Below are positions 14,019 through 60,142 of a stretch of 64,000 nucleotides of DNA, piece after piece. The translations under genes were made by a program, and so were the position numbers. Origin of the DNA: an uncultured Planctomycetales bacterium (GTDB taxonomy: Bacteria > Planctomycetota > MHYJ01 > JACPRB01); assembly GCA_964619955.1 (NCBI GenBank), contig CAZUJF010000002.1:8155-72154 (forward strand). Reading direction: 5' to 3'. A model generated the notes under the pieces. It saw nothing but the letters and a program-made list of their open reading frames with translations, was not told where the DNA came from and did no database searches. Each line of letters begins with the position of its first letter. Position 1 is the stretch's first letter.

Positions 14019-14640
14019 GGCCGCGCCGGGCGCAGCCTCGCCGGACGGGACAGTCCCCGCAGCGGGGCCCGATGGGCCGGCAGACCGCCTTCCCGTGCGC
14101 GACGAGCGCCTCGTTGATCGCGGGCCAGTAGCGCTTCGGGATCAGGCGGGTGAGTCGAACCTCGGTCTCCTCCGGGGTCTTCGTCCGCACCCAGCCCATC
14201 CGGTTCGAGACGCGATGGACGTGGGTGTCCACGGGGATCGCGTCCTGCCCGAAGGCGTAGACGAGGACGCAGTTGGCGACCTTGCGGCCCACCCCCGGAT
14301 ATTCCATGAGGCCCTCGATCGTGCGGGGCAGCCGGCCCCCCTGCTCCACGATGCGCGCCGCGGTCTGCGTGACGTAGCGCGCCTTCGTCCGGTAGAAGCC
14401 GATGGGCTGCAGGATGCGTTCGACCTCGCGGAGCGGGGCCCGGGCGAGCGCCTTGGGCGTCGGGAAGCGCCGGAAGAGCGCGGCGGCGATGACGTCGGTC
14501 ATCTCGTCCCGGGCGCGGGCGGAGAGGATGGTGCCGATCAGCGTGCGGAAGGGGGACACGCGCCGCGCCTGCCAGCCGCCGAGCATGGTGAGCGGATAAC
14601 GCCCCGCGAGGGCGCGGAGGACGGCGGCGATGCGGTTCAT
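13993..14640 (-). CDS. nth: endonuclease III (DNA-(apurinic or apyrimidinic site) lyase)
   Basis: HhH-GPD motifs LMEYPGVGRKVANCV, catalytic D in VDTHVHRV, and a C-terminal CxxxxxxCxxCxxxxxC 4Fe-4S cluster. Confidence 0.85.
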   Translation of the reverse strand: MNRIAAVLRALAGRYPLTMLGGWQARRVSPFRTLIGTILSARARDEMTDVIAAALFRRFPTPKALARAPLREVERILQPIGFYRTKARYVTQTAARIVEQGGRLPRTIEGLMEYPGVGRKVANCVLVYAFGQDAIPVDTHVHRVSNRMGWVRTKTPEETEVRLTRLIPKRYWPAINEALVAHGKAVCRPIGPRCGDCPVRRGCARRGLRRVPADA

Positions 14641-15533: not shown

Positions 15534-15547
15534 GGCGGATCTCCGGA

Positions 15548-30085: not shown

Positions 30086-30171
30086 GCCGGGGTGGCGAAA
30101 CTGGCATACGCTGGGGTTTTAAAAACCCCTGGTCCGCAAGGGCCGTGAGGGTTCAAGTCCCTCCCCCGGCA
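30086..30171 (+). tRNA. tRNA-Leu (anticodon UAA), type II with long variable arm; no encoded CCA
   Basis: Manual cloverleaf: acceptor GCCGGGG/CCCCGGC, anticodon stem GGGGU/ACCCC with loop UUUAAAA (U33, UAA, A37), variable stem GGUCC-GCAA-GGGCC, T-arm GAGGG-TTCAAGT-CCCTC, discriminator A. Confidence 0.8.
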
Positions 30172-30351
30172 CTTCGACTCCTCGCCTTTCCGGCTTCGCC
30201 GGAAAGACTCGTCGCTCAGTGCAAGCATTGCAGCAACGGAAGATCCCTCTCGGCGGAAGGCGAGGAGTCGAAGTGTGGTGAGCCTGCCGAACCAGCGGAG
30301 CCCGACGCTTCCAAGACGCCGGGCGGAGTCGAAGCAGGATAAGATGGGGGT

Positions 30352-36504: not shown

Positions 36505-36710
36505 CCCGTGACATGCGCACGTCGAAACGCAGCCCGCTCCGGATCACGCCCTCCCTGCGGCGGAAGATCGACGACCTCGCGCTCTGGCTGGGCGAAGGCC
36601 GCCCCCGGGCGGTCGCCGAGGCCCGCCGCGCCTTCGTCGGACTTCTGACGGAAGCCGCGCGGCAGCCGCTGCTGACGCTGTTGGGCGAGCCCGGCGACCC
36701 TATCCCTTGA
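36471..36710 (+). CDS. small hypothetical protein, possibly ribbon-helix-helix-like
   Basis: 79-aa ORF. LRITPSLRRKIDDLALWLGE has a beta-strand-then-helix pattern like CopG/Arc. It overlaps the ends of both neighbours, so it may be spurious. Confidence 0.25.
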   Translation: MLNPDARHDDTTRDMRTSKRSPLRITPSLRRKIDDLALWLGEGRPRAVAEARRAFVGLLTEAARQPLLTLLGEPGDPIP

Positions 36711-37998
36711 GCGGCAGCTGGTAGGTGAAGCGGAACTCCATGCCCTCGAGACGGGCCTCCGGGAGGATGCTCACCTGCGCCATCTTCAGCACCCGGCCCT
36801 CGGCGTCCTTCACCTCGACGGGCTGGACCTGCACCGCCGTCTCCGGCGACTTCTTCGCCAGGGGTCCGAGGAATTCGAGCAGCTCCGTTCTGAGGAACCC
36901 GGCGCCCGCCTCCCCCGCCGGCATCTCGTCCATCAGGAACGCGCACAGCTGCGCGAGGCGCCCCGCCATCATCTGATACCCGAAGGTCCCCGCGACGGTG
37001 AGCCTGCCGGGCGCGCTGCGGTGGGTGTTCACCGCCAGCGGGATCATGAGCGAGTCCGCGTTCATGCGCCCGCAGAGCGGCGTGAATCCGCCGCGGGCCA
37101 GCTCCTGGACCAGCGTGTCGGGCACCTCGACCTCGGTCGTGAGCGGGACGGACTGGTTCGCGGCCTTGAAGTGCGGCCGGGTGGGCAGGCCCTGGAAGCC
37201 GCCCGAGCGCGGGCCGGTCAGGTCGATCGCATGGCCGATCGCGGCGATGCTCCGGGCGGCGGAGGCCGCCACGATCCACACCCCTCTGCCCCAGAGCCAG
37301 GTTTCGGGTTTCGAAGGGTCGGTCTTCTCCGCGAAGCCCCCCTTGTCCGCCGTGTACGGCATCCGCTGCAGCCAGCGGTTGACCGTGAGCGAGGTCCAGC
37401 GCGCCGTCTCGGACTTCTGGAATTTCTGCCAGGCCGCGTGCGCGCCGTCCATCAGGCGCTGCGGAATGTCCCCGAGTTTCGACAGCAGATTCAGCTGCTT
37501 GAGGCCGAAGAACGCCGCTGAAGCGCCGGCGAGCAGCGGCGCCTGGGCGACCTTCGCCATGTCGCCGAGTTCCGTGAGCGCGGCCAGGTCCGACCCCAGA
37601 TGCGAGTAGTCGTAGTCGGCGATCACGAGCCCCAGGGGCGGCGTGCGCAGCTCGCGCATCTCCGGTTCGAAGACCGCCTCGCGGAAGCGCGCCGCCGCCT
37701 CCTTCGCCGTCGCGCTGAGCACGTCGATGCGGATCCCCTTCGCATGCTCCTGCAGCAGGCGGAGGCCGCGCAGCGCCGATTCGACGCGCTGGAACGCGGG
37801 GTCGTGCAGGACGGCGTCCGAAGCCTGGACCAGCGAGGCTTCGCCGGAGAGTTCGATGCGGCCGCCGCCCGCCTCCACGGAGGGTCGCAGGGCGCCGAGG
37901 ATCGCGTCGAGGCCGCCTTCGGCGGGGATGCGGACCGGATCCTTCGAGAAGAGGCCGAGGTCCGCGAGGACGACGAAGCGCCAGCCGAGGGGTTTCAT
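36700..37998 (-). CDS. fused, truncated TssB/TssC-like contractile-sheath paralog (432 aa)
   Basis: N-terminal WRFVVLADLGLFSKDP resembles the canonical TssB segment FKMLVMGDFTGRTDD. FQRVESALRGLRLL, VIADYDYSHLGSDLAALTELGDMAKVAQAPLLAGASAAFFG and NRWLQRMPY parallel the canonical TssC at 52263 (FQKLESAWRGIKLL, IVANYDFGPGPQDIALLQKLASVATMSHAPFIANAGPKFFG, PRFLLRLPYG). Confidence 0.7.
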   Translation of the reverse strand: MKPLGWRFVVLADLGLFSKDPVRIPAEGGLDAILGALRPSVEAGGGRIELSGEASLVQASDAVLHDPAFQRVESALRGLRLLQEHAKGIRIDVLSATAKEAAARFREAVFEPEMRELRTPPLGLVIADYDYSHLGSDLAALTELGDMAKVAQAPLLAGASAAFFGLKQLNLLSKLGDIPQRLMDGAHAAWQKFQKSETARWTSLTVNRWLQRMPYTADKGGFAEKTDPSKPETWLWGRGVWIVAASAARSIAAIGHAIDLTGPRSGGFQGLPTRPHFKAANQSVPLTTEVEVPDTLVQELARGGFTPLCGRMNADSLMIPLAVNTHRSAPGRLTVAGTFGYQMMAGRLAQLCAFLMDEMPAGEAGAGFLRTELLEFLGPLAKKSPETAVQVQPVEVKDAEGRVLKMAQVSILPEARLEGMEFRFTYQLPLKG

Positions 37999-38007
37999 CA
38001 GGATCTC

Positions 38008-39642
38008 CTATCGCAGGGGAAGCGGGATTTGAAACGAAAGCGCCGAGAGGCCCCGCAGGACGCCCGCCGAGGGCCTCACGGCGACTTCCAGCGCCGGGGG
38101 ATTGCCGGAAGCGGCGACGGCCGTGGTCGTGAAGAGCGGGGCGCCGCCCTCCGACAGGCCCAGCAGGTCGAGCGCGGCCTGGACCGTGCGGGCGATCTCC
38201 TCCGGGCTGCGGGACGGATCGAGGTAGGCCAGAAGCGGCTCGAGGCCCGCCGACACCTGGGCGGCGAACAGGGTCTGGCGGAAGGACGCGCCGGGGCCGC
38301 GGTGGGCCGAGAGGGAGCCCGCGGCGAAGACGCGGTCCGAGTTCCGCCGGCAGGCGAGCGGCAGCAGTCCCGCGTCCGAAAGCGTCTGGACCGCGGCGTC
38401 GTTCAGTTCCGCCTGCAGCGGCAGGGATCCGGCGAGCGGGAGCGGCTCGAGCGCGGCGGCGGCGTCGCGGCCCGCGAAGTCGACGCCCCATCCGTGGCGG
38501 ACGAAGCTGGCGGCGACGAGCGCCGCGACCGCCAGCGAAGCGCCGCCGAGGGACGGATTTCCGGCCCCTTCCTCGAAGGCGAGGCCGCGGACGGGATCGC
38601 CTTCGGCGCCGTAGGGATTGCGGAGGACGAAGCGGTTGCTCGCGAGCGCGAGCCAGCGGGAGGCTTCACCCTCGCGAAGCGAATTCCAGGCGGCCTGCGA
38701 AACGTCCCCGAGCCGGGAGGCGGCCTCGCGGATGGCGGCCTCGACGGCTCCGCCCGCGATGAGCGGGGTCGAGCGTCCGGCGCAGGCGGCCGCCAGCGTC
38801 GCGAGGTCCGCTTCGCCGCCGTCGAAGTCCGCGTCGACGACGAGACAGACCGTCTTCCCCTGGCTGCGGAGGTCCGCGGCGAGCGGCAGGGCCAGGTCGC
38901 GCGTCGAGCGGACGAGGTCGGCGCGATCCGTCGCGACGACGTGCAGCCGGCAGCCTTTTCGGAAATCCAGGGTCCGCACCAGCCAGCGCAATCCCAGCCA
39001 CGCGGCCTCGAGGGCGCGGAAGCGCGGATGACGGAGCGTCGCGAGCAGCAGCGGGGCGACGGCTTCGTCCGCTTTCGCCGCCGCGGCGCGGAGGGCGGCG
39101 GGCAGGGGTCCGGAGGAAGCCGTCCCGAGCACGGCGGCGATCAGGCGTTCCGCGGCCTTCTCGGCGAGGACGGGCGTGGGATCCTGCGGGGCCCCGTCGT
39201 CCACGAGATCGAAGACGCCCCCCCGGGGAACGGGGGCGGCGGGCGCGGCCGGGGCGGGCTTCGGGGCGGCGGGGGCGCCGTGCAGCGCCTCGTCCAGGGC
39301 GCGGACCAGGCCGGGATAACCGTTCAGCGACGCGAGCGCGCCGCGGAGGGATTCCGCGGAACCGTTTCCGGCGGCGAGATCGAGGGCCTGCTGTTTGATC
39401 TGCAGCAGGGCGGCCAGGGCCGGGAGCCGGGCGGCGAGGCGTTCAGGGCGGAAGTCCCTGAACTCGGCGAATTCGAGGCGGGCCCGGCCGCCGGCGAGGT
39501 CCAGATCGATCGCGGGCGCCGCCTCCCGGAGAAAAGCGTCGAGGGAATCCTTGTCGAGCTCGCGGGCGCCCGTCGCGGGGGGCCTTCCGGGCCGGAGATC
39601 CGAGAGCAGGATGAGATGCAGGGACGGCTCCGTCGCTTCCAT
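38008..39642 (-). CDS. fused TssB-TssC-like contractile-sheath paralog (545 aa)
   Basis: N-terminal SLHLILLSDLRPGR...RELDKDSLDAFLREAAP...LEFAEFRDFRPERLAARLPALAALLQ parallels TssB LPFKMLVMGDFTGR...KPVNIDKDNFNDVMRSM...LKFETLKDMEPEAVAKQIPELQKLLE. It is followed by the TssC-like motifs FRALEAAWLGLRWLVRTLDF and SNRFVLRNPYG. Start set at the internal Met MEATEPS. Confidence 0.7.
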   Translation of the reverse strand: MEATEPSLHLILLSDLRPGRPPATGARELDKDSLDAFLREAAPAIDLDLAGGRARLEFAEFRDFRPERLAARLPALAALLQIKQQALDLAAGNGSAESLRGALASLNGYPGLVRALDEALHGAPAAPKPAPAAPAAPVPRGGVFDLVDDGAPQDPTPVLAEKAAERLIAAVLGTASSGPLPAALRAAAAKADEAVAPLLLATLRHPRFRALEAAWLGLRWLVRTLDFRKGCRLHVVATDRADLVRSTRDLALPLAADLRSQGKTVCLVVDADFDGGEADLATLAAACAGRSTPLIAGGAVEAAIREAASRLGDVSQAAWNSLREGEASRWLALASNRFVLRNPYGAEGDPVRGLAFEEGAGNPSLGGASLAVAALVAASFVRHGWGVDFAGRDAAAALEPLPLAGSLPLQAELNDAAVQTLSDAGLLPLACRRNSDRVFAAGSLSAHRGPGASFRQTLFAAQVSAGLEPLLAYLDPSRSPEEIARTVQAALDLLGLSEGGAPLFTTTAVAASGNPPALEVAVRPSAGVLRGLSALSFQIPLPLR

Positions 39643-39736
39643 GTCGCAACTCCGTGTCGAACCGACCACAGTGCAGCGTGTGGGAAGGGGGGAGTCAAGC
39701 AAAAGGACCGGCGTGTCGCAAAGGCGCGGATGCCTG

Positions 39737-39766
39737 TTTGACACTTCTCGGGGGGACGGGTTAAGA
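39737..39766 (+). promoter_or_regulatory. sigma-70-like promoter candidate TTGACA-N18-TAAGAT in the divergent intergenic region
   Basis: Read from the sequence. It would place the transcription start ~8 nt before the annotated ATG at 39782, implying a near-leaderless mRNA. Confidence 0.25.
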
Positions 39767-39781
39767 TTGTCCGCTCATTCT

Positions 39782-41941
39782 ATGGGTTTGCCCCTACGTC
39801 CCGATGACGCTTCCCGTACGCCCCTTCTCGGGCGTCCCGGCGACCCCCTGAGATTCGAGCTGGATCTCCAGGAGGGGGTCGCGCTGGAGTCCTGCGAAGA
39901 CCCCTTCGTGGCGCTGGGCGATTCCGGGCGGCTGGCGCGCGTGGTGCTCGGACGCCTCGTGTCGGGCGAAGGCACCCTCCTCAAGCCCCTGGCCGTGAAG
40001 CTCCAGCGCAGCTATTACCGTCCGCTGGCCGGCGGGGCGGGCAAGGATCCGCTGACGAATCCGATGATCGAGGAGCGCTGGCGCCGGGAGCGCGAGGCGC
40101 TGGCGAAATGCGCGGGCGGCTCGCTGGTGCCGCTGATCGACCTGGGACCGGCGGGTTTCTCGAGCCGTCCGGTGACGTTCTGCAAGAAGACCCGGGCCTA
40201 CTTTCATCCCCCCTGCCCGCGCTGCGGGGCGCTGCTGGAGGACTGCCGCGACGACGGGCTGCTGCACGAGCACGGCCTGCCCGAATATTCGCGGAGCGCG
40301 ACGCGGTATCTCTACTGCAAGGCCTGCGCTTCCTTCGAGGAGGCGGGCCTGGGCCTGCGGATCTTCTACACGACCGCGCCCGCCGGCGAGGATGCGCCCA
40401 AGGGCGACGCGAACGTGCGGCGCCGCGGCGAGCTCTACCGGGACCTGGGCGCGCTCGTGAACGCCTCGCGGACGGACGAGGAGCGCGCGGCGCTGAGCCG
40501 CAGCTTCCCCTGCGCCGGGTGCCCCCACCGCGAGACGTGTTTTCCCCTGCCCGGCGAGGCGCCGGCGGGCAAGGCGGTCCCCGCCGAGGGCCTGCTCTTC
40601 CCCGTCTCCTACTACGACTTCCACCTCCTGGCGTTCGAGGTGATGGAGCTCCATCTCGACGAGTTCGGGGATCTCCTGGGCGGCGCCTCCTGGGCGGCGC
40701 TCCGGGACCGGGTGCGGCAGGCGGGCAGCGCGGGCCGCGAACGGACCCTGCAGGCCGTGGACGCGCATTACACCGGCCCCGTCCAGTGGCTCTACCAGGA
40801 CGACACGATCGAGCGCTTCGCCCTCGAGGTGCTGCATCTCAAGCTGGCGCTCTTCTCGCAGCTGTGCCGCGGGGTGCGCGAGTACCACGAGAAGGTCCGG
40901 GAGCCGCATCTGCACCTGTCGCCCTCGCAGGTGATGGTGGACGTGCTGCCGGGGGCGACGAATCTTCCCGCCCGCTGGAGCTTCCAGGTCCGGCTGATCG
41001 GCGCCTCGGGGCCGCACCGTTTCGAGCCCCAGGGGCTGCGCGCGGGGCTGCCGGTCCCCGCGCCGGATGCGGACAAGATCTTCCTCTCGCCGTTCGTGCG
41101 CGGCGCGGAGTTCGGGCGCGAGGAGTCGCTGCGCGTCTCGATCCGGTCCCTGCAGCCCGAGGGGGACCAGCTCAAGGTCGAAGGCGTCGCCTCCTCGGAG
41201 CGCGCGCGCCTGGAGACCTGGCAGCCCGGGGACGTGATCCGCGTGGTTCCCACCGGCGGCGCGCTCGAAGGGACGACGCTCTGGGGGACCCTGGAGTGGC
41301 GCGAGGACCAGGGCGTGAAGTTCAGCGCCCTCGTGCCCGCGGGCGCCGTGCCGGATCCCGCGCGGAAGCCGGCGGATTTCGACGCGGGGGTGGCCTGCTT
41401 CCCCCGCTTCGGGGTGGCCTGCGACCTCTATTCGCTCGGACTGCTCCTCTTCCGGTCGCTGCTCGTGAACGACCAGACGACGCTCATCGAGGCCGACGCG
41501 GCGCTGCAGCGCGTGCTGCGCCGGGTGTCGGTCTGGAGCGAAGGCAAGCGGTCGCCCGCCGCCGCGCGCGTGGCGTCGGAGCTGCTGGCGCAGATCGGGC
41601 AGGAACCGGACGTGTTCCAGCCCGGGGCGCTGCTCCACTCGGAGGACGACCGCAACGAGGCCGCGAAGGCGCTGCCGCCGAGACTGTGGTCGGACCTGCT
41701 CCTTTTCGGATTCAAGCTCACGACCTCCATCCCGGGGTTCAGCTTCGCGACGGGGCACGCCGACAGCGTCCCGGACCATCCGGAGGGGCTGATGGACGCC
41801 GTGCGGGCCGAGCTTTCGCAGCTCGAGGCGCGGGTGCGGATCGAGCTCTTCGCCCGCGCCGAGCGGGACCGGGAGATCGGCGAGGTCTGCGACGAGCTGC
41901 TGGCCGAGCTTTCGGGCCCGCCCAAGGCGGGTGCTCCGTGA
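39782..41941 (+). CDS. cytoplasmic protein-kinase-fold protein with degenerate catalytic motifs (pseudokinase-like) and Cys-cluster zinc-ribbon insertions
   Basis: N-lobe-like LGDSGRLARV (G-loop-like) and PLAVKL (beta3 Lys). The catalytic-loop position reads REYHEKVREPHLHLSPSQVMVD (compare HRDLKPENILLD). The DFG position reads VRLIGASGP. The subdomain-IX-like segment is ACDLYSLGLLLFRSL (compare DIWSLGVILYELL). Inserted zinc-ribbon Cys clusters: CPRCG...YCKAC and CAGCPHRETC. Confidence 0.55.
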   Translation: MGLPLRPDDASRTPLLGRPGDPLRFELDLQEGVALESCEDPFVALGDSGRLARVVLGRLVSGEGTLLKPLAVKLQRSYYRPLAGGAGKDPLTNPMIEERWRREREALAKCAGGSLVPLIDLGPAGFSSRPVTFCKKTRAYFHPPCPRCGALLEDCRDDGLLHEHGLPEYSRSATRYLYCKACASFEEAGLGLRIFYTTAPAGEDAPKGDANVRRRGELYRDLGALVNASRTDEERAALSRSFPCAGCPHRETCFPLPGEAPAGKAVPAEGLLFPVSYYDFHLLAFEVMELHLDEFGDLLGGASWAALRDRVRQAGSAGRERTLQAVDAHYTGPVQWLYQDDTIERFALEVLHLKLALFSQLCRGVREYHEKVREPHLHLSPSQVMVDVLPGATNLPARWSFQVRLIGASGPHRFEPQGLRAGLPVPAPDADKIFLSPFVRGAEFGREESLRVSIRSLQPEGDQLKVEGVASSERARLETWQPGDVIRVVPTGGALEGTTLWGTLEWREDQGVKFSALVPAGAVPDPARKPADFDAGVACFPRFGVACDLYSLGLLLFRSLLVNDQTTLIEADAALQRVLRRVSVWSEGKRSPAAARVASELLAQIGQEPDVFQPGALLHSEDDRNEAAKALPPRLWSDLLLFGFKLTTSIPGFSFATGHADSVPDHPEGLMDAVRAELSQLEARVRIELFARAERDREIGEVCDELLAELSGPPKAGAP

Positions 41942-49099: not shown

Positions 49100-50031
49100 T
49101 GCAGCTCCGCGCCGCCTGTTACGGGAAGGTCCCCATCCACGGCGATTTCATCCGCCACAACGTGGCGGGCCCGGAGGTCGACCTCCTGGACCAGTGGCTC
49201 CAGAACGGGATCGTCGCCTCGCACGCGCCGCTGGGGTCCGGCTGGGACGCCGCCTTCGACGCGACGCGGCTTCAGCGCTTCCTCTTCCAGCCCCCGCAGA
49301 CCGGAAAGGTCGTCGCGGGGGTCCTGACGGCCTCCAAGGACCGGCCGGGCCGGCGCTTCTTCTTCATCGTCCACACCGTGATCGATCCCGCCTCGCTCGG
49401 CGCCGAGGCGACGCTGCTGCCGGCGGTGCTCTCCTCGTTCTTCGACGCCGCCGAGCAGGAGGCCCTCTCCGGATGGCAGGGCCGGGACCTCAAGGGCTTC
49501 CTCGGGCGCATCGACGCCCTGTCGCTGCCGAAGGGGCTGGACGAGGCGAAGAAGGCGATCGTGTCGTTCGTCGCCGGGCGTCCTGCGCAGGAGGTCTGGC
49601 AGGACATGTTCGGCGCGCCGGACGACCCGCGGAAATACCTGCTCGTCCACAACCTGGTCGAGACGTTCAAGGCCTCCCCGGTGCCCAAATACGCCCTGCG
49701 TTTTCCCAAGATGAGCGGGGCGCCCGAGGTCTCGTTCTGGCTGGAGCTGCTGCGGAAGCTGGGCCGGCGCAAGGGGCTGCCGACGCTGACGCTCTGGGGG
49801 CCGGACGCGGCGGGCGCCGCGCCCGGGCTCACGGTCCTCTTCGACGACCTGAAGGCGAATTATTTCCTGCCGCTCTGGTGGCCCGGGCGCAAGAGCAGCC
49901 TGCTCTTTCCGCTCGCGGAGGCCGCCGCCGCGGCGGATCCCCGGGTGCAGCAGGCGAAGGGGCGCTACGGCCCGCTGCTGGACGACGGGGCGCTGCGCCT
50001 CTCGGCCCTCCTCAGCGGATTGACCGCGTGA
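49099..50031 (+). CDS. tagF: T6SS-associated protein TagF (DUF2094)
   Basis: ATGA overlap with tssM. N-terminal CYGKVPIHGDFIRHN hallmark. It is the last 310 aa of a spurious 1275-aa track ORF. Confidence 0.8.
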   Translation: MQLRAACYGKVPIHGDFIRHNVAGPEVDLLDQWLQNGIVASHAPLGSGWDAAFDATRLQRFLFQPPQTGKVVAGVLTASKDRPGRRFFFIVHTVIDPASLGAEATLLPAVLSSFFDAAEQEALSGWQGRDLKGFLGRIDALSLPKGLDEAKKAIVSFVAGRPAQEVWQDMFGAPDDPRKYLLVHNLVETFKASPVPKYALRFPKMSGAPEVSFWLELLRKLGRRKGLPTLTLWGPDAAGAAPGLTVLFDDLKANYFLPLWWPGRKSSLLFPLAEAAAAADPRVQQAKGRYGPLLDDGALRLSALLSGLTA

Positions 50032-50131
50032 GCCGCCGCCGTGAAATCGGTTGCTTTGCCCCACGGGGATTTTTATCCTCAGCGGTTTCGGGCGGACGGG
50101 CCGCGGGCCGCCGCATCAAGGAGGGTGGATC

Positions 50132-51688
50132 GTGTCTGACCTGAGCGCGCTGGCCGCCCTGGGCCCGGCTCCGATCGCGGGCGAGAATCCGTCCGGCATC
50201 TCCGCCCGGTACGAGCCGGAGTTCGACAAACTTTCGACCGAGATCGCCAAGCTGGAGTCCGTCGAAGGAAAGTCCTCGATCCACTGGGACAAGGTGGTGG
50301 AGGCCTCCACCGCGCTGCTCGCGAAATCGAAGGACCTTCTGGTCTCCTCCTATCTGACGATGGGCCTGCTCCAGGAGGACGGCTACGCCGGCCTGTCCAC
50401 GGGCATCGTCTTGTGCCGGGACTTCCTGAACGGTTTCTGGGAGAACCTCTTTCCGGAGAAGGCCCGTCTGCGGGCGCGCGCTCAGGCCCTGCAGTGGATG
50501 GGGGAGCGGCTGCCGCCCGTGCTCCAGGAGAAGGGCGACGCGTCGAAGTCGGACAAGGAGCCGCTCCAGGCGGCCGTCGCCGCGCTGAACGAGATCATCG
50601 CCCTCTGCGGGCAGAAGTTCGAGGAGGGCGGGCCGAGCCTGGGCGAACTGCTCAGCGCCGTCGAGTACAAGCTCGCCTCCGTGCCCGCGGACGCCCCGCC
50701 GCCCTCGAGCGAGCCCGCGCCGTCGGAGTCGGGCGGGTCTTCGGATTCCTCCTCGAGTTCGGCGGCTCCGGAAGCCCCTCCCCCTCCGAAGGAGATGGAC
50801 TCCCCGGACGCGGCGCGCGAGGCGCTCGCGGAGATGAAGGAGCGGCGGATCAAGGCCGCGACGCTGCTGCGGGAGGCGAATCCCGCCGACCCGCTGCCCT
50901 ACCGGCTGCTGCGGGCGGCGGTCTGGGAGGATCTCTTCGAGGCGCCCCCGTCGAAGGACGGGGTGAGCGAGGCCTCGGGGGGCGACGCCTCCTTCGCCCA
51001 GCAGATGGAGGAGAAGCTCGAAAAGGGCGACTACGCCCCGGTGATCGCGGAGTGCGAGGCGAAGCTGCCCCCGGACCGTCTCTGGCTGGACCTGAACTTC
51101 CTCGTCTTCCGCGCCATGGAGGGCCTGGGCCGGCCCTATGCGGCGGCCCGGCGGGCGCTGGGGGACGAAGTGGCGCGGCTCGCGCGCTCGCTGCCCGCGC
51201 TGCTGGAGCAGAAATTCGCGGACGGGACGCCGATGGCGTCCGAAGCGGCGCGGCTCTGGATCCAGCACGAGCTGGGCGCGCTGCCCGCGAAGGGCGGCGG
51301 GGCCGCGGGCGGGCTGGAGGCCGCGGTGGCCGAGGCCCGGAAGCTGGTGGCGCGGAAGAGCTTCCCCGAGGCGGCGGCGCTGCTGCAGAAGGAGTCGCGG
51401 GCCGGGGCGGAGCGCCGCGACCGCTTCCGGGGGCGGCTGTATCTGGCGAAGCTGTGCGCGGAGGCGGGACGCCCCGACCTGGCGCAGCCCCAGCTGGAGG
51501 GGCTCGACGAGGAGGCCCGCCGCTTCTCGCTGGAGGAGTGGGAGCCTTCGCTGGCGGCGGAGATCGCGCGGGAGCTCTGGAAGTGCCACAAGGCGTCCCC
51601 GACCCCGGAGAAGGCCGCGGAATTCCTGGCCCGGCTCTGCCGGCTGGACCTTTCCGCGGCGCTGGCGTTCGAAGCGACCAAAAAATGA
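50132..51688 (+). CDS. tssA: T6SS protein TssA (ImpA N-terminal domain)
   Basis: GTG start 7 nt after AAGGAGGG. ImpA_N-type N-terminus LAALGPAPIAGENPSGISARYEPEFDKL...IHWDKV. Confidence 0.8.
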   Translation: MSDLSALAALGPAPIAGENPSGISARYEPEFDKLSTEIAKLESVEGKSSIHWDKVVEASTALLAKSKDLLVSSYLTMGLLQEDGYAGLSTGIVLCRDFLNGFWENLFPEKARLRARAQALQWMGERLPPVLQEKGDASKSDKEPLQAAVAALNEIIALCGQKFEEGGPSLGELLSAVEYKLASVPADAPPPSSEPAPSESGGSSDSSSSSAAPEAPPPPKEMDSPDAAREALAEMKERRIKAATLLREANPADPLPYRLLRAAVWEDLFEAPPSKDGVSEASGGDASFAQQMEEKLEKGDYAPVIAECEAKLPPDRLWLDLNFLVFRAMEGLGRPYAAARRALGDEVARLARSLPALLEQKFADGTPMASEAARLWIQHELGALPAKGGGAAGGLEAAVAEARKLVARKSFPEAAALLQKESRAGAERRDRFRGRLYLAKLCAEAGRPDLAQPQLEGLDEEARRFSLEEWEPSLAAEIARELWKCHKASPTPEKAAEFLARLCRLDLSAALAFEATKK

Positions 51689-51732: not shown

Positions 51733-52224
51733 ATGGCAAAGGAAGGATCCGTCGCTCCGCGGGAGCGCGTCAACATCGTCTACAAGCCGGCCACGGGGGA
51801 CGCCACCGAGGAGAAGGAGCTGCCCTTCAAGATGCTGGTGATGGGCGACTTCACGGGGCGCACGGACGACCGCGCGCTGGAGGACCGGAAGCCGGTCAAC
51901 ATCGACAAGGACAACTTCAACGACGTCATGCGCAGCATGAAGCTGAACGCGACCTTCAACGTCGCCAACACGCTCTCCGGCAAGGAGGGCGAGGAAATGC
52001 CGGTGAAGCTGAAGTTCGAGACCCTCAAGGACATGGAGCCGGAGGCGGTCGCCAAGCAGATCCCCGAGCTGCAGAAGCTGCTCGAGTTGCGCGACACGCT
52101 GACGGCCCTGAAGGGCCCCCTCGGCAACCTCCCGGAATTCCGGAAGAAGATCCAGTCGCTGGTGGCGGACCCCGCGGCGCGCGAGAAGCTCATGAAGGAG
52201 CTGGGTCTCGAGGAAAAGAAGTAG
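51733..52224 (+). CDS. tssB: T6SS contractile sheath small subunit TssB (VipA)
   Basis: ERVNIVYKP...LPFKMLVMGDFTG... motifs. SD GAGGAGGA upstream of the ATG. Confidence 0.9.
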   Translation: MAKEGSVAPRERVNIVYKPATGDATEEKELPFKMLVMGDFTGRTDDRALEDRKPVNIDKDNFNDVMRSMKLNATFNVANTLSGKEGEEMPVKLKFETLKDMEPEAVAKQIPELQKLLELRDTLTALKGPLGNLPEFRKKIQSLVADPAAREKLMKELGLEEKK

Positions 52225-52262
52225 TCCGGTCCTTACCTTGAACGATAAAGGAGATTTTTGAC

Positions 52263-53744
52263 ATGGCGGACGCCCAGGAACAGGCCAAGCAGTCCTCCGC
52301 CGAGGCCGCGGCGGGGTCCATCCTCGACGACATCATGGTCCAGACCAAGCTCAAGCCCAGCGACGAGGGGTACGACGTCGCCAAGAAAGGCGTGCAGGCG
52401 TTCATCGCGGCCCTGGTCGCGCCCACGGGCGCGGGCCAGAAGGCCGACAAGAAGATGGTCGACTCCATGATCTCCGAGATCGACGCGAAGATCTCGAAGC
52501 AGCTCGACCAGGTGATGCATCAGCAGGCCTTCCAGAAGCTGGAATCCGCCTGGCGCGGCATCAAGCTGCTCGTGGACCGCACGGATTTCCGCGAGAGCAA
52601 CAAGGTCAACCTGCTGAACTGCTCCAAGGACGACCTGCTGGCCGACTTCGAGGACTCCCCCGAGGTGGTCAAGAGCGGCCTCTACAAGACGGCCTACACC
52701 GGCGAGTTCGGGCAGTTCGGCGGCGAGCCCTACGGGGCGATCGTGGCCAACTACGACTTCGGGCCCGGCCCCCAGGACATCGCGCTGCTGCAGAAGCTCG
52801 CGAGCGTGGCGACGATGTCGCACGCGCCGTTCATCGCGAACGCGGGACCCAAGTTCTTCGGGCTCGACAACTACCTCAAGCTGCCCAACCTCAAGGACCT
52901 CAAGTCGATCTTCGAGGGGCCCCAGTACGCCAAGTGGCAGTCCTTCCGCGAGTCGGAGGATTCCCGCAGCGTCGCGCTCTGCGTGCCGCGCTTCCTCCTG
53001 CGCCTCCCGTACGGGCCGAACACGGTGCCCGTCAAGTCCTTCAATTACGAGGAGGACGTGAAGGCCACGCACAACGACTACCTCTGGGGATCGAGCTCCT
53101 TCGCGTTCGCCACGAAGCTGGCCGACAGCTTCGCGAAGTACCGCATGTGCGCGAACATCATCGGCCCGACGTCGGGCGGCGCGGTCGAGGACCTGCCGCT
53201 CCACCAGTTCGAGTCCATGGGCGAGATCGAGACGAAGGTCCCCACGGAGATCCTCGTCTCCGAACGGCGCGAGTTCGAGCTGGCCGAGGAGGGCTTCGTG
53301 GCCCTCTCGTTCCGCAAGGGCTCGGACAACGCCTGCTTCTTCTCCGCCAACTCCTGCCAGAAGCCCAAGAAGTTCGGCACGAGCAAGGAGGCGAAGGATG
53401 CGGAGCTCAACTACCGCCTGAGCACGCAGCTCCCCTACCTCTTCGTGATCAACCGCCTGGCGCACTACATCAAGGTGCTCCAGCGCGAGCAGATCGGCAG
53501 CTGGAAGGAGAAGGACGACCTCCAGCGCGAGCTGAACAAGTGGATCTCCCAGTACGTCGTGGACATGGACAACCCGAGCCCCTCGGTCCGGAGCCGCTGC
53601 CCCCTGCGGTCGGCGCAGATCACCGTCGAGGACGTCCCGGGCGAGGCGGGCTGGTACAAGGTCGACATGAAGGTGCGGCCCCACTTCAAGTACATGGGGG
53701 CCTTTTTCACGCTTTCGCTGGTGGGCAAACTCGATAAGAAGTAA
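52263..53744 (+). CDS. tssC: T6SS contractile sheath large subunit TssC (VipB)
   Basis: 493 aa with FQKLESAWRGIKLLVDRTDF and CVPRFLLRLPYG motifs. Confidence 0.95.
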   Translation: MADAQEQAKQSSAEAAAGSILDDIMVQTKLKPSDEGYDVAKKGVQAFIAALVAPTGAGQKADKKMVDSMISEIDAKISKQLDQVMHQQAFQKLESAWRGIKLLVDRTDFRESNKVNLLNCSKDDLLADFEDSPEVVKSGLYKTAYTGEFGQFGGEPYGAIVANYDFGPGPQDIALLQKLASVATMSHAPFIANAGPKFFGLDNYLKLPNLKDLKSIFEGPQYAKWQSFRESEDSRSVALCVPRFLLRLPYGPNTVPVKSFNYEEDVKATHNDYLWGSSSFAFATKLADSFAKYRMCANIIGPTSGGAVEDLPLHQFESMGEIETKVPTEILVSERREFELAEEGFVALSFRKGSDNACFFSANSCQKPKKFGTSKEAKDAELNYRLSTQLPYLFVINRLAHYIKVLQREQIGSWKEKDDLQRELNKWISQYVVDMDNPSPSVRSRCPLRSAQITVEDVPGEAGWYKVDMKVRPHFKYMGAFFTLSLVGKLDKK

Positions 53745-54307: not shown

Positions 54308-54326
54308 TTTTTTCCCGAGCCGCCCG

Positions 54327-54357
54327 TCCCGGCCCCGTCGCGGGGCCGGGACGGCGG
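54327..54357 (+). terminator. GC-rich hairpin downstream of hcp (possible attenuator; no U-tract on this strand)
   Basis: CCGTCCCGGCCCC-GTCGC-GGGGCCGGGACGG, immediately after TAGTTTTTT. Confidence 0.3.
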
Positions 54358-54371
54358 CCGGATCCCCCCTC

Positions 54372-54785
54372 ATGTCCTCCGACCGCTCCCTGTTCGAACG
54401 CCTCGCCCGGCCGGCCGGTCCGGGGGGGCGGAGCGCCGTCCGGAGCGGCGCGGAGCTGGCCCGCTCGGTGCTCCGCAACCTCCAGCGCATCCTCAACTCG
54501 CGGCTGGGCGCCTCCATGGCCCAGCCGGATCTCGGCATGCCCGCCCCCTCCGACGTCGCGCAGGCGGCCCCGGACGCGGTGGTCCTCGTGATGAAGAACC
54601 TGCGCGCCTGTATCGAAAAATACGAGCCGCGGCTCGCGTCGGTGGACATCGCGCACGTGGAGGCGGCCGACGACGTGCTCAGCCTGCGCTTCCAGATCAC
54701 CGGCCGGCTGACCGGGCCCGACGGCACGACGCTGAGTTTCGACACCCTGGTCGGCCCGAGCGGCCGGATCCTGCTTCAGGGCTGA
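54372..54785 (+). CDS. tssE: T6SS baseplate subunit TssE (gp25-like)
   Basis: SLFERLA...SVLRNLQRILNSRLG...DLGMP N-terminal motifs. 137 aa. Confidence 0.85.
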   Translation: MSSDRSLFERLARPAGPGGRSAVRSGAELARSVLRNLQRILNSRLGASMAQPDLGMPAPSDVAQAAPDAVVLVMKNLRACIEKYEPRLASVDIAHVEAADDVLSLRFQITGRLTGPDGTTLSFDTLVGPSGRILLQG

Positions 54786-54790
54786 AAGAC

Positions 54791-56527: not shown

Positions 56528-57546
56528 GCGCGAGGCTCCTCAGGGAGGGCTTCCGCTTCAGCTTCTTCCAGGCGGTGCGCCTGCTTCAGGTCTCGCGCCC
56601 TGACGCGGCCCTCGTGGGCCGGCAGGGCCCGGTGGACCGGGAGATCCTCCGCTTCCGCCCGGAGCTCGGGCTGGGCTTCCCCGCGTCCGACGTCGCCGGC
56701 ATCCGGGAGGCGCCCTCGCCGTCGGAGCTGCCCCGCTACGAGATCGCCACGACGTTCATGGGCCTCTACGGGCCGTCCTCCCCGCTGCCCTCGTATTTCA
56801 CCGAGGAGCTGATCCACGCCGAGCAGGACGACGAATGCCTCCAGCGGGAGTTCCTCGACATCTTCCACCACCGGGCGATCTCGCTGTTCTACCGGGCCTG
56901 GGAGAAATACCGCTACTCGGTGGGGTTCCGGAACGACGGCTCCGACCCCGAGTCGCGCCGCCTGCTGGCGCTGCTCGGCGGGGCGGCGCTGCCGGCGGAC
57001 CACCACGTGCCCGCCGTCCGCCTGCTCGGCTTCGCCGGGCTCCTGACGCAGGTGCCCCGCTCGGCCGCCAGCCTGCGCGGCCTGCTCGCCGGATATTTCG
57101 AGGGCGTGCCCGTCCGGGTGGAGCCCTTCGCCGGACGCTGGGTGGAGATCCCGGAGGACCAGCGCTGCCGGCTCGGGGTCTCCGGCACCACGCTCGGGCT
57201 CGACACGAGCCTCGGCGACCGCGTCTACGACCTCGCCGCGACGTTCCGCGTGGAACTGGGCCCGCTGGGCCGCGAGGACTTCATGGCATTCCTCCCCTCC
57301 GGCGATAGAATGCCGGAGCTTCGGGAGCTGGTGGACCTGGTCAACGGGGACGGCCTCGACTACGAGATCGAGCTGATCCTGCGGGACGCGGAGGTCCCGG
57401 CGCTCCAGTTGTGCGGACCGACGGCCCGCCTGGGCTGGTGCTCCTGGCTGGGGCGGCGGGACGGCATGGACGCGCGTTTCAAGATCTTGGTGAAAGGATG
57501 GCAGCATGGCCGACGTGAACCTCAAGGCGCTGGTCGCACGGCTTGA
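56491..57546 (+). CDS. tssG: T6SS baseplate subunit TssG
   Basis: FRFSFFQAVRLLQ hallmark near the N-terminus. The start is uncertain: GTG at 56491 or ATG at 56386. It overlaps the tssF end. Confidence 0.8.
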   Translation: MAGEDRGPDPAVSARLLREGFRFSFFQAVRLLQVSRPDAALVGRQGPVDREILRFRPELGLGFPASDVAGIREAPSPSELPRYEIATTFMGLYGPSSPLPSYFTEELIHAEQDDECLQREFLDIFHHRAISLFYRAWEKYRYSVGFRNDGSDPESRRLLALLGGAALPADHHVPAVRLLGFAGLLTQVPRSAASLRGLLAGYFEGVPVRVEPFAGRWVEIPEDQRCRLGVSGTTLGLDTSLGDRVYDLAATFRVELGPLGREDFMAFLPSGDRMPELRELVDLVNGDGLDYEIELILRDAEVPALQLCGPTARLGWCSWLGRRDGMDARFKILVKGWQHGRREPQGAGRTA

Positions 57547-60142
57547 CCGCTTCTGCACGCGGTCGCTGGAGGCCGCCGCGGGCCTCTGCATCTCGCGGAC
57601 CCATTACGAGGTCACGCCGGAACACCTGCTGCTCGCGTTCTCCGAGGACGTCACGGCGGACGTCCAGCAGATCTACAAGCACTTCGGCGTGGACGCGGGC
57701 AGGGTCCAGAAGGGCCTCTCGCAGGTCCTGGACACGCTCAAGACGGGCAACGCGGGGCGCCCCGTGTTCTCGCCCCTGCTCGTGGAATGGATCCAGCAGG
57801 GCTGGCTCTGCGCCTCGCTCGATTTCGGCCTCGCGGAGATCCGCTCGGGCGTGATGCTCCAGGCGCTGCTCGCCAACGCGAGCCGCCTGGGGGCGGACGA
57901 GGTCGTGACGCTCCTGGAGGGGATCAACCGCCTCGACCTCAAGGCGAAGTACTCGACGATCATCGCGAACTCCTCGGAGCAGTCGCGCCGCATGGGCGCG
58001 GGGGAGGCCACGAGCGGCGCCGGGGCTGCGTCCGCGGCGCCCACGGGAGAGGGCGCGCTCGCCAAGTTCGCGAACAACTTCACGCAGCAGGCGCGCGACG
58101 GGAAGATCGACCCGGTCTTCGGGCGCGACCGCGAGATCCGCCAGATGATCGACATCCTGGCGCGGCGCCGGAAGAACAATCCCATCTGCGTCGGCGAGCC
58201 GGGGGTCGGCAAGACCGCCGTCGTGGAAGGCCTGGCCCTGAAGGTGGTCGAGGGGGACGTGCCGGACGCGCTCAAGAACGTCGAGGTGCTCGGCCTCGAC
58301 ATCGGCCTGCTGCAGGCCGGCGCGAGCGTGAAGGGCGAGTTCGAGAACCGCCTCAAGGGGGTGATCGAGGAGGTCAAGGCCTCCCCGAAGCCGGTCATCC
58401 TCTTCATCGACGAGGCGCACACGCTGATCGGCGCCGGGGGCGCCGCGGGCGGCGGCGACGCCGCGAACCTGCTCAAGCCCGCGCTCGCGCGCGGCGAGCT
58501 GCGGACGATCGCCGCGACCACCTGGAGCGAGTACAAGAAGTACTTCGAGAAGGACGCCGCCCTCGCACGCCGCTTCCAGCTGGTCAAGCTCGACGAGCCG
58601 GACGAGGCGACGACGGTGACCATGCTCCGCGGTCTGCGCGACCGCTACGAAAAGGCCCACGGGGTCGTGATCCGCGACGAGGCGCTCACCGCGGCCGCCC
58701 AGCTGGGCAGCCGCTACATCGCGGGCCGCCAGCATCCGGACAAGGGCGTGGACCTCATGGACACGAGCGCGGCGCGCGTGAAGATCGCGCTGACGACGAA
58801 GCCTCCCGAAATCCAGGATCTGGACCGCCGGGTGCAGGAGCTCGAGCGCGAGCAGGCGGCCCTGACGCGGGACCGCCAGGGCGGCAACAAGGGCCTCGAC
58901 GAGCGCCTGGCCGAGGCGGCGAAGGAAGTGACGGCGGCGAAGGCGAGGATCGCCGAGCTGACCGCGCGCTGGCAGAAGGAGAAGGCCGCGGTCGAGAAGG
59001 TCCTCGCCGTCCGAAAGAAGATCGACGGGCCCGAGGGGAAGAAGGACGCCGCGAAGCTGGCGCCCGAGCTCGAATCGGCCCTCCTGGCGCTCAAGGAGAT
59101 CCAGGGCCGCGATCCCATGATGTTCGCCGAGGTGACGCCCGAGGTGGTGGCCCGCGTGGTCGCCGACTGGACGGGCATCCCCATCGGGAAGATGGTGCAG
59201 GACCAGGCCCAGGCGCTGCTCACGTTCGAGCAGAACCTGCGGCAGCGCATCAAGGGGCAGGATCACGTCTCCTCGATGGTCGGCACGGGCATCCGCGCCG
59301 CGAAGGCGGGCCTCAAGAACCCGCGCACGCCCATGGGCGTCTTCCTCTTCGTCGGCCCCTCGGGCGTCGGCAAGACCGAGACGGCCCTCGGCGTGGCGGA
59401 CCTGCTCTTCGGCGGCGAGCGCTTCCTCACGGTCATCAACATGTCGGAGTTCCAGGAGAAGCACACGGTTTCCCGGCTCATCGGCTCGCCCCCGGGCTAC
59501 GTCGGTTACGGCGAGGGCGGCGTGCTCACCGAGGCGGTGCGGCAGAAGCCGTATTCCGTCGTGCTCCTGGACGAATGCGAGAAGGCCGACCCGGAGGTCC
59601 TCAACCTCTTCTACCAGGTCTTCGACAAGGGCATGCTGTCGGACGGCGAGGGCCGCGAGGTCGACTTCAAGGACACCGTCCTCTTCCTCACGAGCAACCT
59701 GGCGACGGACCTCATCATGCAGAGCGTCGCGGACGGCTCGCGGCCGCCGATGGAGGATCTCATCGCGCTGATCCGTCCGGCGCTCTCGAAGCACTTCAAG
59801 CCCGCGCTGCTGGCGCGCATGACGATCATCCCCTTCTACCCCATCGGGCAGGACGCGCTGAAGGAGATCACCCGGCTCAAGCTCGGGCAGCTCGAGAAGC
59901 GGCTCAAGCAGAACCACAAGATGGCGATGGACGTGGACCCGAAGGTCGTCGACGCGATCGCCGAGCGCTGCACCGAGGTGGAGACCGGCGCGCGCAACGT
60001 GGACCACATCATCTCGGGCACGCTGCTGCCGAAGATCTCGAACGAGATCCTCCAGCAGATGGCCACGGGGACGATGCCGGACCGGATCTCGGTGACGCTG
60101 GACGCCAAGGGCGATTTCGGGTTCGCCTTCTCGAAGAAGTAG
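57506..60142 (+). CDS. clpV: T6SS AAA+ ATPase ClpV (TssH)
   Basis: N-domain LKALVARLD...CR..LE.AA, followed by two AAA modules (GEPGVGKTA, GPSGVGKTE). 878 aa. Confidence 0.95.
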   Translation: MADVNLKALVARLDRFCTRSLEAAAGLCISRTHYEVTPEHLLLAFSEDVTADVQQIYKHFGVDAGRVQKGLSQVLDTLKTGNAGRPVFSPLLVEWIQQGWLCASLDFGLAEIRSGVMLQALLANASRLGADEVVTLLEGINRLDLKAKYSTIIANSSEQSRRMGAGEATSGAGAASAAPTGEGALAKFANNFTQQARDGKIDPVFGRDREIRQMIDILARRRKNNPICVGEPGVGKTAVVEGLALKVVEGDVPDALKNVEVLGLDIGLLQAGASVKGEFENRLKGVIEEVKASPKPVILFIDEAHTLIGAGGAAGGGDAANLLKPALARGELRTIAATTWSEYKKYFEKDAALARRFQLVKLDEPDEATTVTMLRGLRDRYEKAHGVVIRDEALTAAAQLGSRYIAGRQHPDKGVDLMDTSAARVKIALTTKPPEIQDLDRRVQELEREQAALTRDRQGGNKGLDERLAEAAKEVTAAKARIAELTARWQKEKAAVEKVLAVRKKIDGPEGKKDAAKLAPELESALLALKEIQGRDPMMFAEVTPEVVARVVADWTGIPIGKMVQDQAQALLTFEQNLRQRIKGQDHVSSMVGTGIRAAKAGLKNPRTPMGVFLFVGPSGVGKTETALGVADLLFGGERFLTVINMSEFQEKHTVSRLIGSPPGYVGYGEGGVLTEAVRQKPYSVVLLDECEKADPEVLNLFYQVFDKGMLSDGEGREVDFKDTVLFLTSNLATDLIMQSVADGSRPPMEDLIALIRPALSKHFKPALLARMTIIPFYPIGQDALKEITRLKLGQLEKRLKQNHKMAMDVDPKVVDAIAERCTEVETGARNVDHIISGTLLPKISNEILQQMATGTMPDRISVTLDAKGDFGFAFSKK

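Follow-up and report, generated by a model that had tools for sequence, protein, structure and literature searches.

Why should a bacterium that encodes a complete type VI secretion system (T6SS), sheath genes tssB and tssC included, carry two further genes that resemble both? The question is raised by a 64,000-nucleotide stretch of DNA (the window) from an uncultured Planctomycetales bacterium (GenBank assembly GCA_964619955.1, contig CAZUJF010000002.1, positions 8,155 to 72,154 of the forward strand; G+C content, ∼70%), in which two adjacent minus-strand genes, here termed shA and shB, lie next to a T6SS operon. The initial annotation placed the pair at positions 36700 to 39642, with lengths of 432 and 545 aa. 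Both boundaries proved exact, the larger length being that of 545 codons including the stop (544 aa). To our knowledge, every characterized T6SS sheath consists of one TssB/TssC pair or, in subtype iv, of one sheath protein. The products of shA and shB clearly share ancestry and fold with TssB and TssC, and they belong to a widespread accessory clade in uncultured bacteria that is unnamed in Pfam and NCBIfam.

Homology and predicted fold

Profile searches and predicted structures, the checks proposed in the initial annotation, both bore out the resemblance to sheath proteins. Against PF05943 (VipB N-terminal domain; gathering cutoff, 27 bits), shA scored 141.1 bits (E = 5.1e-41) and shB 91.4 bits (E = 7e-26). 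BLASTP aligned both with the TssC of the window (shA, 27% identity, E = 8e-33; shB, 25% identity, E = 7e-24), identity to this protein being only 25 to 28%, and aligned the two with each other (29% identity, E = 7e-15). Family profiles built from 53 homologues of shA and 42 of shB matched solved TssC chains at E values of ∼1e-45, the shA match to IglB extending to profile position 445.

A TssB-like N terminus had been claimed for each protein in addition to the TssC core. The TssC core was found in both, and the TssB-like part was found directly in shB, which matches PF05591 (VipA) over profile positions 54 to 140 (E = 1.6e-6; 28.4 bits against a cutoff of 24). The shB family profile matches solved TssB/VipA chains at E values of 2e-9 to 3e-8, with shB residues 2 to 117 on TssB residues 26 to 154. 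For shA the assignment is transitive: PF05591 gave no match in the Pfam search, and TssB itself, compared directly, gives a weak alignment (E = 0.005; probability, 7%), yet one in the same register, with “GWRFVVLADLG” opposite “PFKMLVMGDFTG”. In hhalign, the shA and shB families align with a probability of 100% (E = 1.4e-43), and shA residues 4 to 58 lie on shB residues 6 to 83. Judged by these alignments, the N terminus of shA is TssB-like in a way detectable only via shB.

The canonical motifs ESAxRG, FFG, SExxRW..NR.L.R.PY, and LWG are still present in both proteins. However, shA and shB fall far beneath the cutoffs of the NCBIfam models TIGR03355 and TIGR03358 (135.6 and 88.9 bits, respectively, against the equivalog cutoff of 271.5 bits for TIGR03355), and the gpW/gp25-like C-terminal domain PF18945, which the TssC of the window matches at E = 3e-45, was not detected by hidden Markov model (HMM) search in either protein. 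Rather than second copies of tssC, shA and shB are divergent paralogues.

AlphaFold monomer models computed from the family alignments had predicted local distance difference test (pLDDT) scores of 94 for shA, with a predicted template modeling score of 0.93, and 88 for shB. In Foldseek searches of the Protein Data Bank (PDB), the best matches of both models were TssC/VipB chains from the sheaths of Pseudomonas aeruginosa, Vibrio cholerae, and Myxococcus xanthus: for shA, an E value of 1.1e-22 and template modeling (TM) scores of 0.69 to 0.72 over ∼410 columns; for shB, an E value of 3.3e-14 and TM scores of 0.63 to 0.70, normalized by target length. Sheaths of phages and of extracellular contractile injection systems (eCIS) ranked far lower.

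Anatomy of shA and shB

There is no separate TssB-type polypeptide in either case; a fusion in cis joins the TssB-like segment with the TssC-like body. As the initial annotation had pointed out, both proteins are shorter than TssB and TssC together (165 + 493 = 658 aa), and the difference can be assigned to particular parts (Table 1).

Table 1. Positions of shA, shB, their parts, and associated T6SS features in the window
Feature	Position	Strand	Description
shA	36700..37998	−	432 aa; single-chain sheath paralogue with TssB-like strand region, TssC core, and predicted C-terminal handshake domain; domain 3 and N-terminal arm absent
shA residues 1-58	37825..37998	−	Putative remnant of TssB-like segment; starts at the equivalent of TssB “LPFKMLVMGDF”
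shA residues 331-432	36703..37008	−	C-terminal domain; two helices, beta-hairpin 389-411, last strand 424-429; layout of the TssC gp25-like handshake domain (AlphaFold prediction)
shB-shA junction	37999..38010	−	TAG stop of shB sits within an AGGAG site, 7 nt ahead of the ATG of shA (from the sequence)
shB	38008..39642	−	544 aa (545 codons including stop); single-chain TssB-TssC fusion; domain 3 kept, N-terminal arm absent
shB residues 1-121	39280..39642	−	TssB/VipA-like segment, corresponding to TssB residues ∼26-154; without the first ∼25-28 residues (donor strand and linker)
shB residues 122-180	39103..39279	−	Pro/Ala-rich linker between TssB-like and TssC-like parts; low AlphaFold confidence
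shB residues 137-148	39199..39234	−	“PVPRGGVFDLVD”; near-invariant short motif of the disordered linker, located where TssC has its N-terminal ClpV-binding helix
Divergent intergenic region, shB/unk719	39643..39781	.	139 bp
unk719	39782..41941	+	719 aa; first gene of the T6SS operon; no family match
Canonical tssB and tssC	51733..53744	+	TssB, ∼165 aa with N-terminal arm “RERVNIVYK”; TssC, 493 aa, PF05943 and PF18945; main sheath
TssE	54372-54785		137 aa; PF04965, E = 3.4e-14
ClpV	57506..60142	+	Clp_N and two AAA domains; candidate partner of the shB linker motif

First, the start of each protein is fixed by the consensus of its family (“MxPxGWRxVVVADLG” for shA and “MExSDPSFxLIVVSDL” for shB) and by public gene calls. 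The sequences open with “MAKEGSVAPRERVNIVYKPATGDATEEKELPFKMLVMGDF” in the TssB of the window, “MKPLGWRFVVLADLG” in shA, and “MEATEPSLHLILLSDL” in shB. Both shA and shB therefore begin at the equivalent of TssB residue ∼28 (between ∼26 and 29), and these starts are conserved across the two families. In VipA, the linker ends at about residue 25 (PMC5924787). Both proteins thus lack the N-terminal donor strand and the linker that TssB contributes to the sheath mesh. In that mesh, two strands from neighboring protomers of a ring, N-terminal in TssB/IglA and C-terminal in TssC/IglB, together extend a two-stranded TssC sheet that belongs to the ring on the baseplate side (PMC5924787). Deletion of the N-terminal strand of IglA in Francisella abolishes secretion, and heterodimers still form (PMC5924787).

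Second, shA lacks the equivalent of shB residues ∼84 to 200 and is colinear with shB from “ESAxRGL” to the C terminus (hhalign). The gap takes in the helices that end the TssB part, the Pro/Ala linker, and the helices that open the TssC part; in hhalign, shB residues 136 to 200 align with TssC residues 13 to 90. In the VipA/VipB structure, these elements form the outer, T6SS-specific “domain 3”. Hence, the shB protomer comprises all three domains within one chain, and the shA protomer, also one chain, only the two phage-like inner ones.

Third, the C-terminal part of the shB model consists of two helices, a hairpin (residues 504 to 524), and a final strand (residues 535 to 540), which is the order of elements in the TssC handshake domain and matches that of shA. 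Because PF18945 was undetected by HMM, the handshake domain was assigned from the predicted structure and the pattern of secondary structure. On these models, the acceptor beta-hairpin and the last strand are predicted to be retained in both proteins.

The linker of shB and ClpV

The segment that joins the two halves of shB has pLDDT values of <50 at residues 137 to 142, 145 to 154, and 172 to 176, and within it lies a conserved pattern, P-x-G-G-[VIL]-F-D-L-V-D, followed by a conserved [ST]-P-E-x-[VIA]-E-[KR]. ClpV binds canonical TssC at its N-terminal segment (PMC5048182). In hhalign, “GGVFDLVDD” of shB is set opposite “GSILDDIMVQT” of the window TssC, for which the M. xanthus equivalent is “SLLDEILSE”; the ClpV helix region is entirely absent from shA. 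Because the GG[VIL]FDLVD motif aligns with the ClpV-binding segment, we infer that shB may still be addressable by ClpV and that shA would not be.

Gene organization and the adjacent T6SS

Both genes have a strong coding signal, with G+C contents at third codon positions of 0.93 (shA) and 0.87 (shB), and identical gene calls exist in public assemblies (P0001 and P0121, respectively). An upstream GTG start for shB (position 39744; 578 aa) was ruled out, as the homologue consensus and the public gene calls start at the ATG at 39642. The two genes had been described as divergently transcribed, which holds with respect to the main T6SS operon and not between the genes themselves, as shA and shB run in the same direction. 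They form one operon, because the stop codon of shB overlaps the AGGAG site ahead of the ATG of shA, an arrangement that probably couples translation of shA to that of shB. A gene for a PMT_2-type glycosyltransferase sits downstream of shA. The intergenic region shared with the T6SS operon, first estimated at ∼140 bp, holds a sigma-70-like site on the plus strand (TTGACA-18-TAAGAT; 39738 to 39767); no consensus promoter was found on the minus strand within 39643 to 39781.

The plus-strand operon encodes a complete subtype i T6SS, in the order unk719-Fha-TssJKLM-TssA-TssBC-Hcp-TssEFG-ClpV-VgrG, where Fha is Fha/TagH. It was considered whether shA and shB replace a missing TssE, since forced translation of 54308 to 56527 gave only TssF; this was ruled out, TssE being present in another frame. 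Pfam scans of the other open reading frames (ORFs) of the window revealed no second Hcp, baseplate, or ClpV and no eCIS genes. A second contractile system in the window was likewise ruled out, as the remaining ORFs (34 kb) contain only housekeeping genes by Pfam. The initial annotation had held that the locus has no second set of such genes and that shA and shB are accessory rather than part of a second system; the scans agree with the former, and the latter also stands, the neighboring cluster being equipped with a TssB, TssC, TssE, Hcp, ClpV, baseplate, and membrane complex of its own.

The first gene of the operon, unk719, encodes a protein with no match in Pfam, NCBIfam, or the PDB. This protein has Cys-rich CxxC stretches in its N-terminal region and, in addition, one motif resembling a kinase subdomain, “CDLYSLGLLLFRSL”. 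That unk719 is a protein kinase is unsupported: no kinase domain was found, and it shares just a 14-residue “CDLYSLG” match (E = 0.006) with the kinase of a related locus (L038). Among the fetched loci, homologues of unk719 occur only beside single-chain sheath paralogues (L002 to L004, L046, and L081), in two different gene orders.

Two further ORFs without a family match lie inside the T6SS cluster, at 49194 to 50144 (plus strand) between tssM and tssA and at 60161 to 61186 (minus strand) between clpV and vgrG, and both have homologues at the same positions in a closely related metagenome locus (L114). A HisKA/sigma-54 activator pair is encoded at 9075 to 11625, ∼25 kb from the sheath genes. 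ARAGORN and Rfam identified a single RNA gene in the window, for tRNA-Leu (anticodon TAA), at 30086 to 30172 on the plus strand. A caller based on third-position G+C content found no convincing gene at 14018 to 15548; this stretch (∼1.5 kb) lies downstream of a gene for an N6/N4 DNA methylase (13242 to 14018).

Conservation and gene neighborhoods

In a protein collection clustered at 90%, shA had 120 homologues (∼436 aa each) and shB had 77, nearly all of them metagenomic. Few homologues are named, and the labels are “ImpC” or “contractile sheath large subunit”. Across metagenome-assembled genomes (MAGs) of Planctomycetota and “Candidatus Eisenbacteria”, identity is 37 to 70%. A scan with one genome per species yielded 31 loci, all from MAGs and mostly from “Ca. 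Eisenbacteria” and Planctomycetota, with one labeled Deltaproteobacteria and one Minwuia.

This survey, also suggested by the initial annotation, revealed that the pair is kept next to T6SS loci, in more than one layout. In three Planctomycetota loci (L002 to L004) the layout is that of the window, with shB-shA divergent from unk719-Fha-TssJ-K-L-M. In “Ca. Eisenbacteria” the order is shB-(DUF922)-shA at the opposite end of the cluster, near genes for DUF2169, PAAR-like, and effector proteins and VgrG-ClpV-TssG, and in many of these loci shA is present and shB is absent within the 10-kb flanks. An shA-type gene occurs with canonical tssB and tssC in one cluster in the window, in L013, and in L030, although in L030 only tssC is seen, the cluster being cut by the end of the locus.

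Upstream of shB/shA in “Ca. Eisenbacteria” (L001, L010, L012, L016, L026, and L031), there is a conserved codirectional set, consisting of genes for CsgG-like/TPR lipoproteins, an unknown protein of ∼390 aa, and a protein of 1,100 to 1,600 aa with fn3 and Ig-like repeats. Another subset has a cyclophilin-like gene and a gene for a secreted protein of ∼1,000 aa in place of this set. In one MAG represented by L036 and L037 (6695 to 8104 and 5250 to 6698), shB-shA is divergent from genes for a histidine kinase and a sigma-54 response regulator.

The statement in the initial annotation that the arrangement was not recognized from described T6SS subtypes agrees with the databases, in that Pfam and NCBIfam hold no named accessory family, giving only subthreshold canonical matches. 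Full-text searches turned up no paper that describes natural fusions of TssB with TssC or paralogues of T6SS sheath proteins, although subscription-only papers may exist.

A broader family of single-chain TssBC proteins

An exhaustive profile search with the shA alignment returned 4,583 clusters at E values of ≤1e-3. Among the best 150 of these, ∼25 shA-like clusters (430 to 490 aa) come first and are followed mostly by proteins of 580 to 650 aa. The long proteins that were examined contain VipA, VipB, and often VipB_2 within one ORF, as in “Candidatus Poribacteria” MBI1926566.1 (P0231; 645 aa). They keep an arm-like segment of 20 to 50 residues ahead of the “LPLRLLVLGDF” strand, and they score higher with the shA profile (∼170 to 270 bits) than solved canonical TssC chains do (∼145 to 160 bits). 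In a rough neighbor-joining tree, canonical TssC is separate from two further groups, one “short” (containing shA and its relatives) and one “long” (containing shB and its relatives).

A metagenome scan with an alignment of the full-length fusions relied on canonical TssC motifs as patterns and so returned mostly plain neighboring tssB-tssC pairs; real fusions were therefore picked by local reanalysis of 80 loci. In four of these (L046, L081, L075, and L084), single-chain paralogues adjoin canonical tssB-tssC. Both shA and shB themselves carry TssB- and TssC-like parts in one ORF and are additional to the canonical tssB and tssC in or beside a T6SS cluster. Pairs of a short and a long protein recur in the window, L029, L048, and L049. 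One related fusion, in L038, is divergent from genes for a true Ser/Thr kinase, an FHA-sigma54 activator, and a PP2C phosphatase. In L076 (4580 to 6580), a fused TssB-TssC ORF with a fully canonical TssB N terminus, “MSKDATVAPQERINIKYK...”, occupies the position TssA-[BC]-TssE-TssF-TssG; it is either a natural fusion of the main sheath or a sequencing or frameshift artifact.

Other members of the family were seen in a range of settings. A fused TssBC (624 to 658 aa) lies directly upstream of tssK, followed by tssL and tssM, in L040, L041, L043, and L044, and downstream of VgrG/PAAR/DUF2169 genes in L040 and L043, where the upstream flank is visible; the visible flanks of L040 to L045 stop before the TssA-to-ClpV half. 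L042 (10001 to 13855) has a fusedBC-HicB-TssK minimodule between housekeeping genes and recA, with no further T6SS gene in view. The pair in L048 (6398 to 9907; 545 and 620 aa), which is of the same type as that in L049, is followed by four codirectional genes for unknown proteins of 1,019, 391, 183, and 911 aa. Two large proteins, P0252 (1,305 aa; Planctomycetota MBI2901211.1) and P0270 (1,116 aa), have two or three tandem VipA-VipB-VipB_2 units per ORF. P0242 (2,151 aa) combines VipB_2, TPR, VipA, VipB, Pkinase, and TssK in one ORF and may be a read-through of gene calling.

Comparison with known contractile systems

In fold, sequence motifs, and location in a T6SS cluster, shA and shB are like canonical TssB/TssC (VipA/VipB, IglA/IglB, and HsiB/HsiC). 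Canonical sheaths are built of two chains, whereas shA and shB are one polypeptide each and are encoded in addition to the canonical pair, not instead of it. They further differ from that pair in the lack of the TssB donor strand and linker, in the absence of domain 3 and the ClpV-binding helix from shA, in the disordered Pro/Ala linker between the halves of shB, and in a C-terminal domain too divergent for PF18945.

With eCIS they share a concept: several single-chain sheath paralogues in different positions of one machine, the positions being conjectural for shA and shB. In PVC particles, the initiator layer, which sits on a gp25-like adaptor, consists of Pvc4, and the trunk is made of layers of Pvc2 and Pvc3 (PMC12546770). 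Similarity to Pvc2/Pvc3/Pvc4 and Afp2/3/4 is distant only, however (Foldseek E values of 1e-4 to 1e-6, TM scores of 0.35 to 0.5, and 9 to 14% identity). Both handshake arms are present in the eCIS paralogues, which work in particles that lack ClpV and are not recycled, whereas shA and shB descend from the TssB/TssC of T6SSs. They are not eCIS sheath proteins.

The full-length TssBC fusions, such as P0231, likewise have TssB and TssC in one ORF and lie in T6SS clusters near VgrG/DUF2169 or TssK-L-M genes. They differ from shA and shB in their arm-like segment, detectable PF18945, and near-full length (620 to 680 aa). They are annotated as “contractile sheath large subunit”, and a search for literature on them found none.

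A further parallel is TssE, whose handshake-type beta-sheet accepts the strands of the first sheath ring and which is not a polymerizing sheath subunit (PMC5924787). Like TssE, shA and shB keep the acceptor hairpin and lack the donor arm. TssE, however, is a small single domain encoded here by a separate gene, whereas shA and shB have full sheath-protomer folds.

Proposed role of shA and shB

The reading that we favor, tentatively and at somewhat less than an even chance, is that shA and shB are accessory structural subunits that dock on the canonical sheath as a specialized end layer. We envisage the following. (i) Alone, shA and shB would be unable to weave a normal contractile mesh, because one of the two donor elements is missing. 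(ii) They would instead dock on the canonical TssBC/Hcp assembly. (iii) There they would form one or two specialized layers at a sheath end, for which a baseplate-proximal initiator layer next to TssE would be the more natural position, because the two proteins could accept arms from the ring above and would donate only the C-terminal strand downward. (iv) Of the two, shB would stay within reach of ClpV and shA would not. Such a division of labor would resemble that of the eCIS paralogues, with Pvc4 as initiator and Pvc2/Pvc3 as trunk. A wider proposition is that several uncultured phyla build a heterotypic sheath, with TssB/TssC joined by armless single-chain paralogues, in many cases a short one together with a long one, as an initiator or terminator ring or as an entry point for ClpV; we consider this possible and rather doubtful.

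Several observations weigh against an end layer. The placement in the sheath derives from predictions of monomers, and the handshake domain, undetected by PF18945, from a predicted structure. In Basler's model, the trigger for contraction is a pull that the baseplate exerts on the N-terminal linkers of ring 1 (PMC5924787), with which an armless first ring fits poorly, so that a position that is distal or interspersed, or else a part in regulation, stays a live alternative. The two proteins need not act as a pair, because so many “Ca. Eisenbacteria” loci carry shA without a nearby shB. The short-plus-long pair in L048 has no recognizable T6SS core gene within its 20-kb locus. The conserved synteny with unk719, kinase, and Fha could instead indicate a regulatory role.

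On that account, shA and shB would be regulators of assembly, i.e., soluble factors in the post-translational control of T6SS firing by kinase and Fha rather than lasting constituents of the sheath. One possible function would be to nucleate or gate its polymerization, and another would be to hold the free arms of TssBC on the unoccupied acceptor hairpins of shA and shB. The genes keep close to the regulatory end of the cluster, with unk719-Fha adjoining shB in the window and in L002 to L004, and the restriction of unk719 homologues to the company of such paralogues in two gene orders, the kinase, FHA-sigma54, and PP2C neighbors of the L038 fusion, and the two conserved motifs in the disordered shB linker (GG[VIL]FDLVD and [ST]-P-E-x-[VIA]-E-[KR]) all point in the same direction. 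Yet a full protomer fold with canonical TssC motifs seems beyond the needs of a regulator, in “Ca. Eisenbacteria” the genes are found at the VgrG/effector end, where neither a kinase nor Fha is close by, and unk719 has no detectable kinase domain, only the 14-residue motif in common with a kinase (E = 0.006). A regulatory role is, in our estimate, unlikely, though the strongest rival to an end layer.

It is more improbable that shA and shB copolymerize, e.g., in alternating layers, into an alternative sheath on the same baseplate and Hcp tube under other conditions. A single chain is compatible with a working sheath, because full-length single-chain TssBC proteins exist and one of them (L076) is in the canonical TssA-[BC]-TssE position; short-plus-long pairs recur in several lineages, and the pair in the window has its own divergent promoter region. 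Against this, the donor strand that Francisella requires for function (PMC5924787) is missing from both proteins, and, as shA lacks domain 3, the known ClpV route of recycling would be closed to half of such a sheath. Moreover, shA frequently occurs without shB, and canonical tssBC is retained wherever the relevant region is visible (window, L013, and L030).

Equally improbable in our estimate is a sparse distribution of armless subunits along the canonical sheath, as weak points or ClpV entry sites through which contraction, length, or disassembly would be tuned. The predicted acceptor hairpin and C-terminal strand would permit a lattice position in which armlessness locally breaks the connectivity within a ring, the motif resembling the ClpV helix sits on a long flexible linker of shB and could be exposed before contraction, and transcription apart from tssBC would permit low stoichiometry. 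The proposal is, however, purely inferential, and the outer layer would have gaps wherever shA, which lacks domain 3, is built in. Finally, decay of functionless tssBC duplicates, suggested by the truncation of both proteins relative to TssB plus TssC and by their scores under the NCBIfam equivalog cutoffs, is effectively refuted by conservation: the ORFs are intact, with a strong coding signal and confidently predicted folds, >100 full-length orthologues with 37 to 70% identity and conserved termini and motifs occur in two phyla, and operon structure and neighborhood are conserved.

Implications

Handling of the first and last rings, sheath length, and access of ClpV are credited to factors other than the sheath, namely, TssE, TssA, TagA, and TagJ, and we know of no characterized T6SS with a built-in sheath device of this kind for starting, stopping, or setting length. 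If the heterotypic sheath is real, shA and shB would be such a device, possibly under the control of unk719/kinase-Fha. Conserved extra subunits with a protomer fold and no arm and, in shA, no recycling domain would also be a natural experiment on which connections of the mesh are needed. The current label “contractile sheath large subunit” leads to an overcount of T6SS sheaths, and natural single-chain TssBC proteins are possible templates for engineering. With unk719, a further conserved T6SS-associated protein without a known fold has come to light. The sheath parts list is heterogeneous, as shA and shB illustrate with natural variants that lack the arm and, in shA, domain 3, and their family would show that T6SSs, like extracellular injection systems, can split labor among sheath paralogues.

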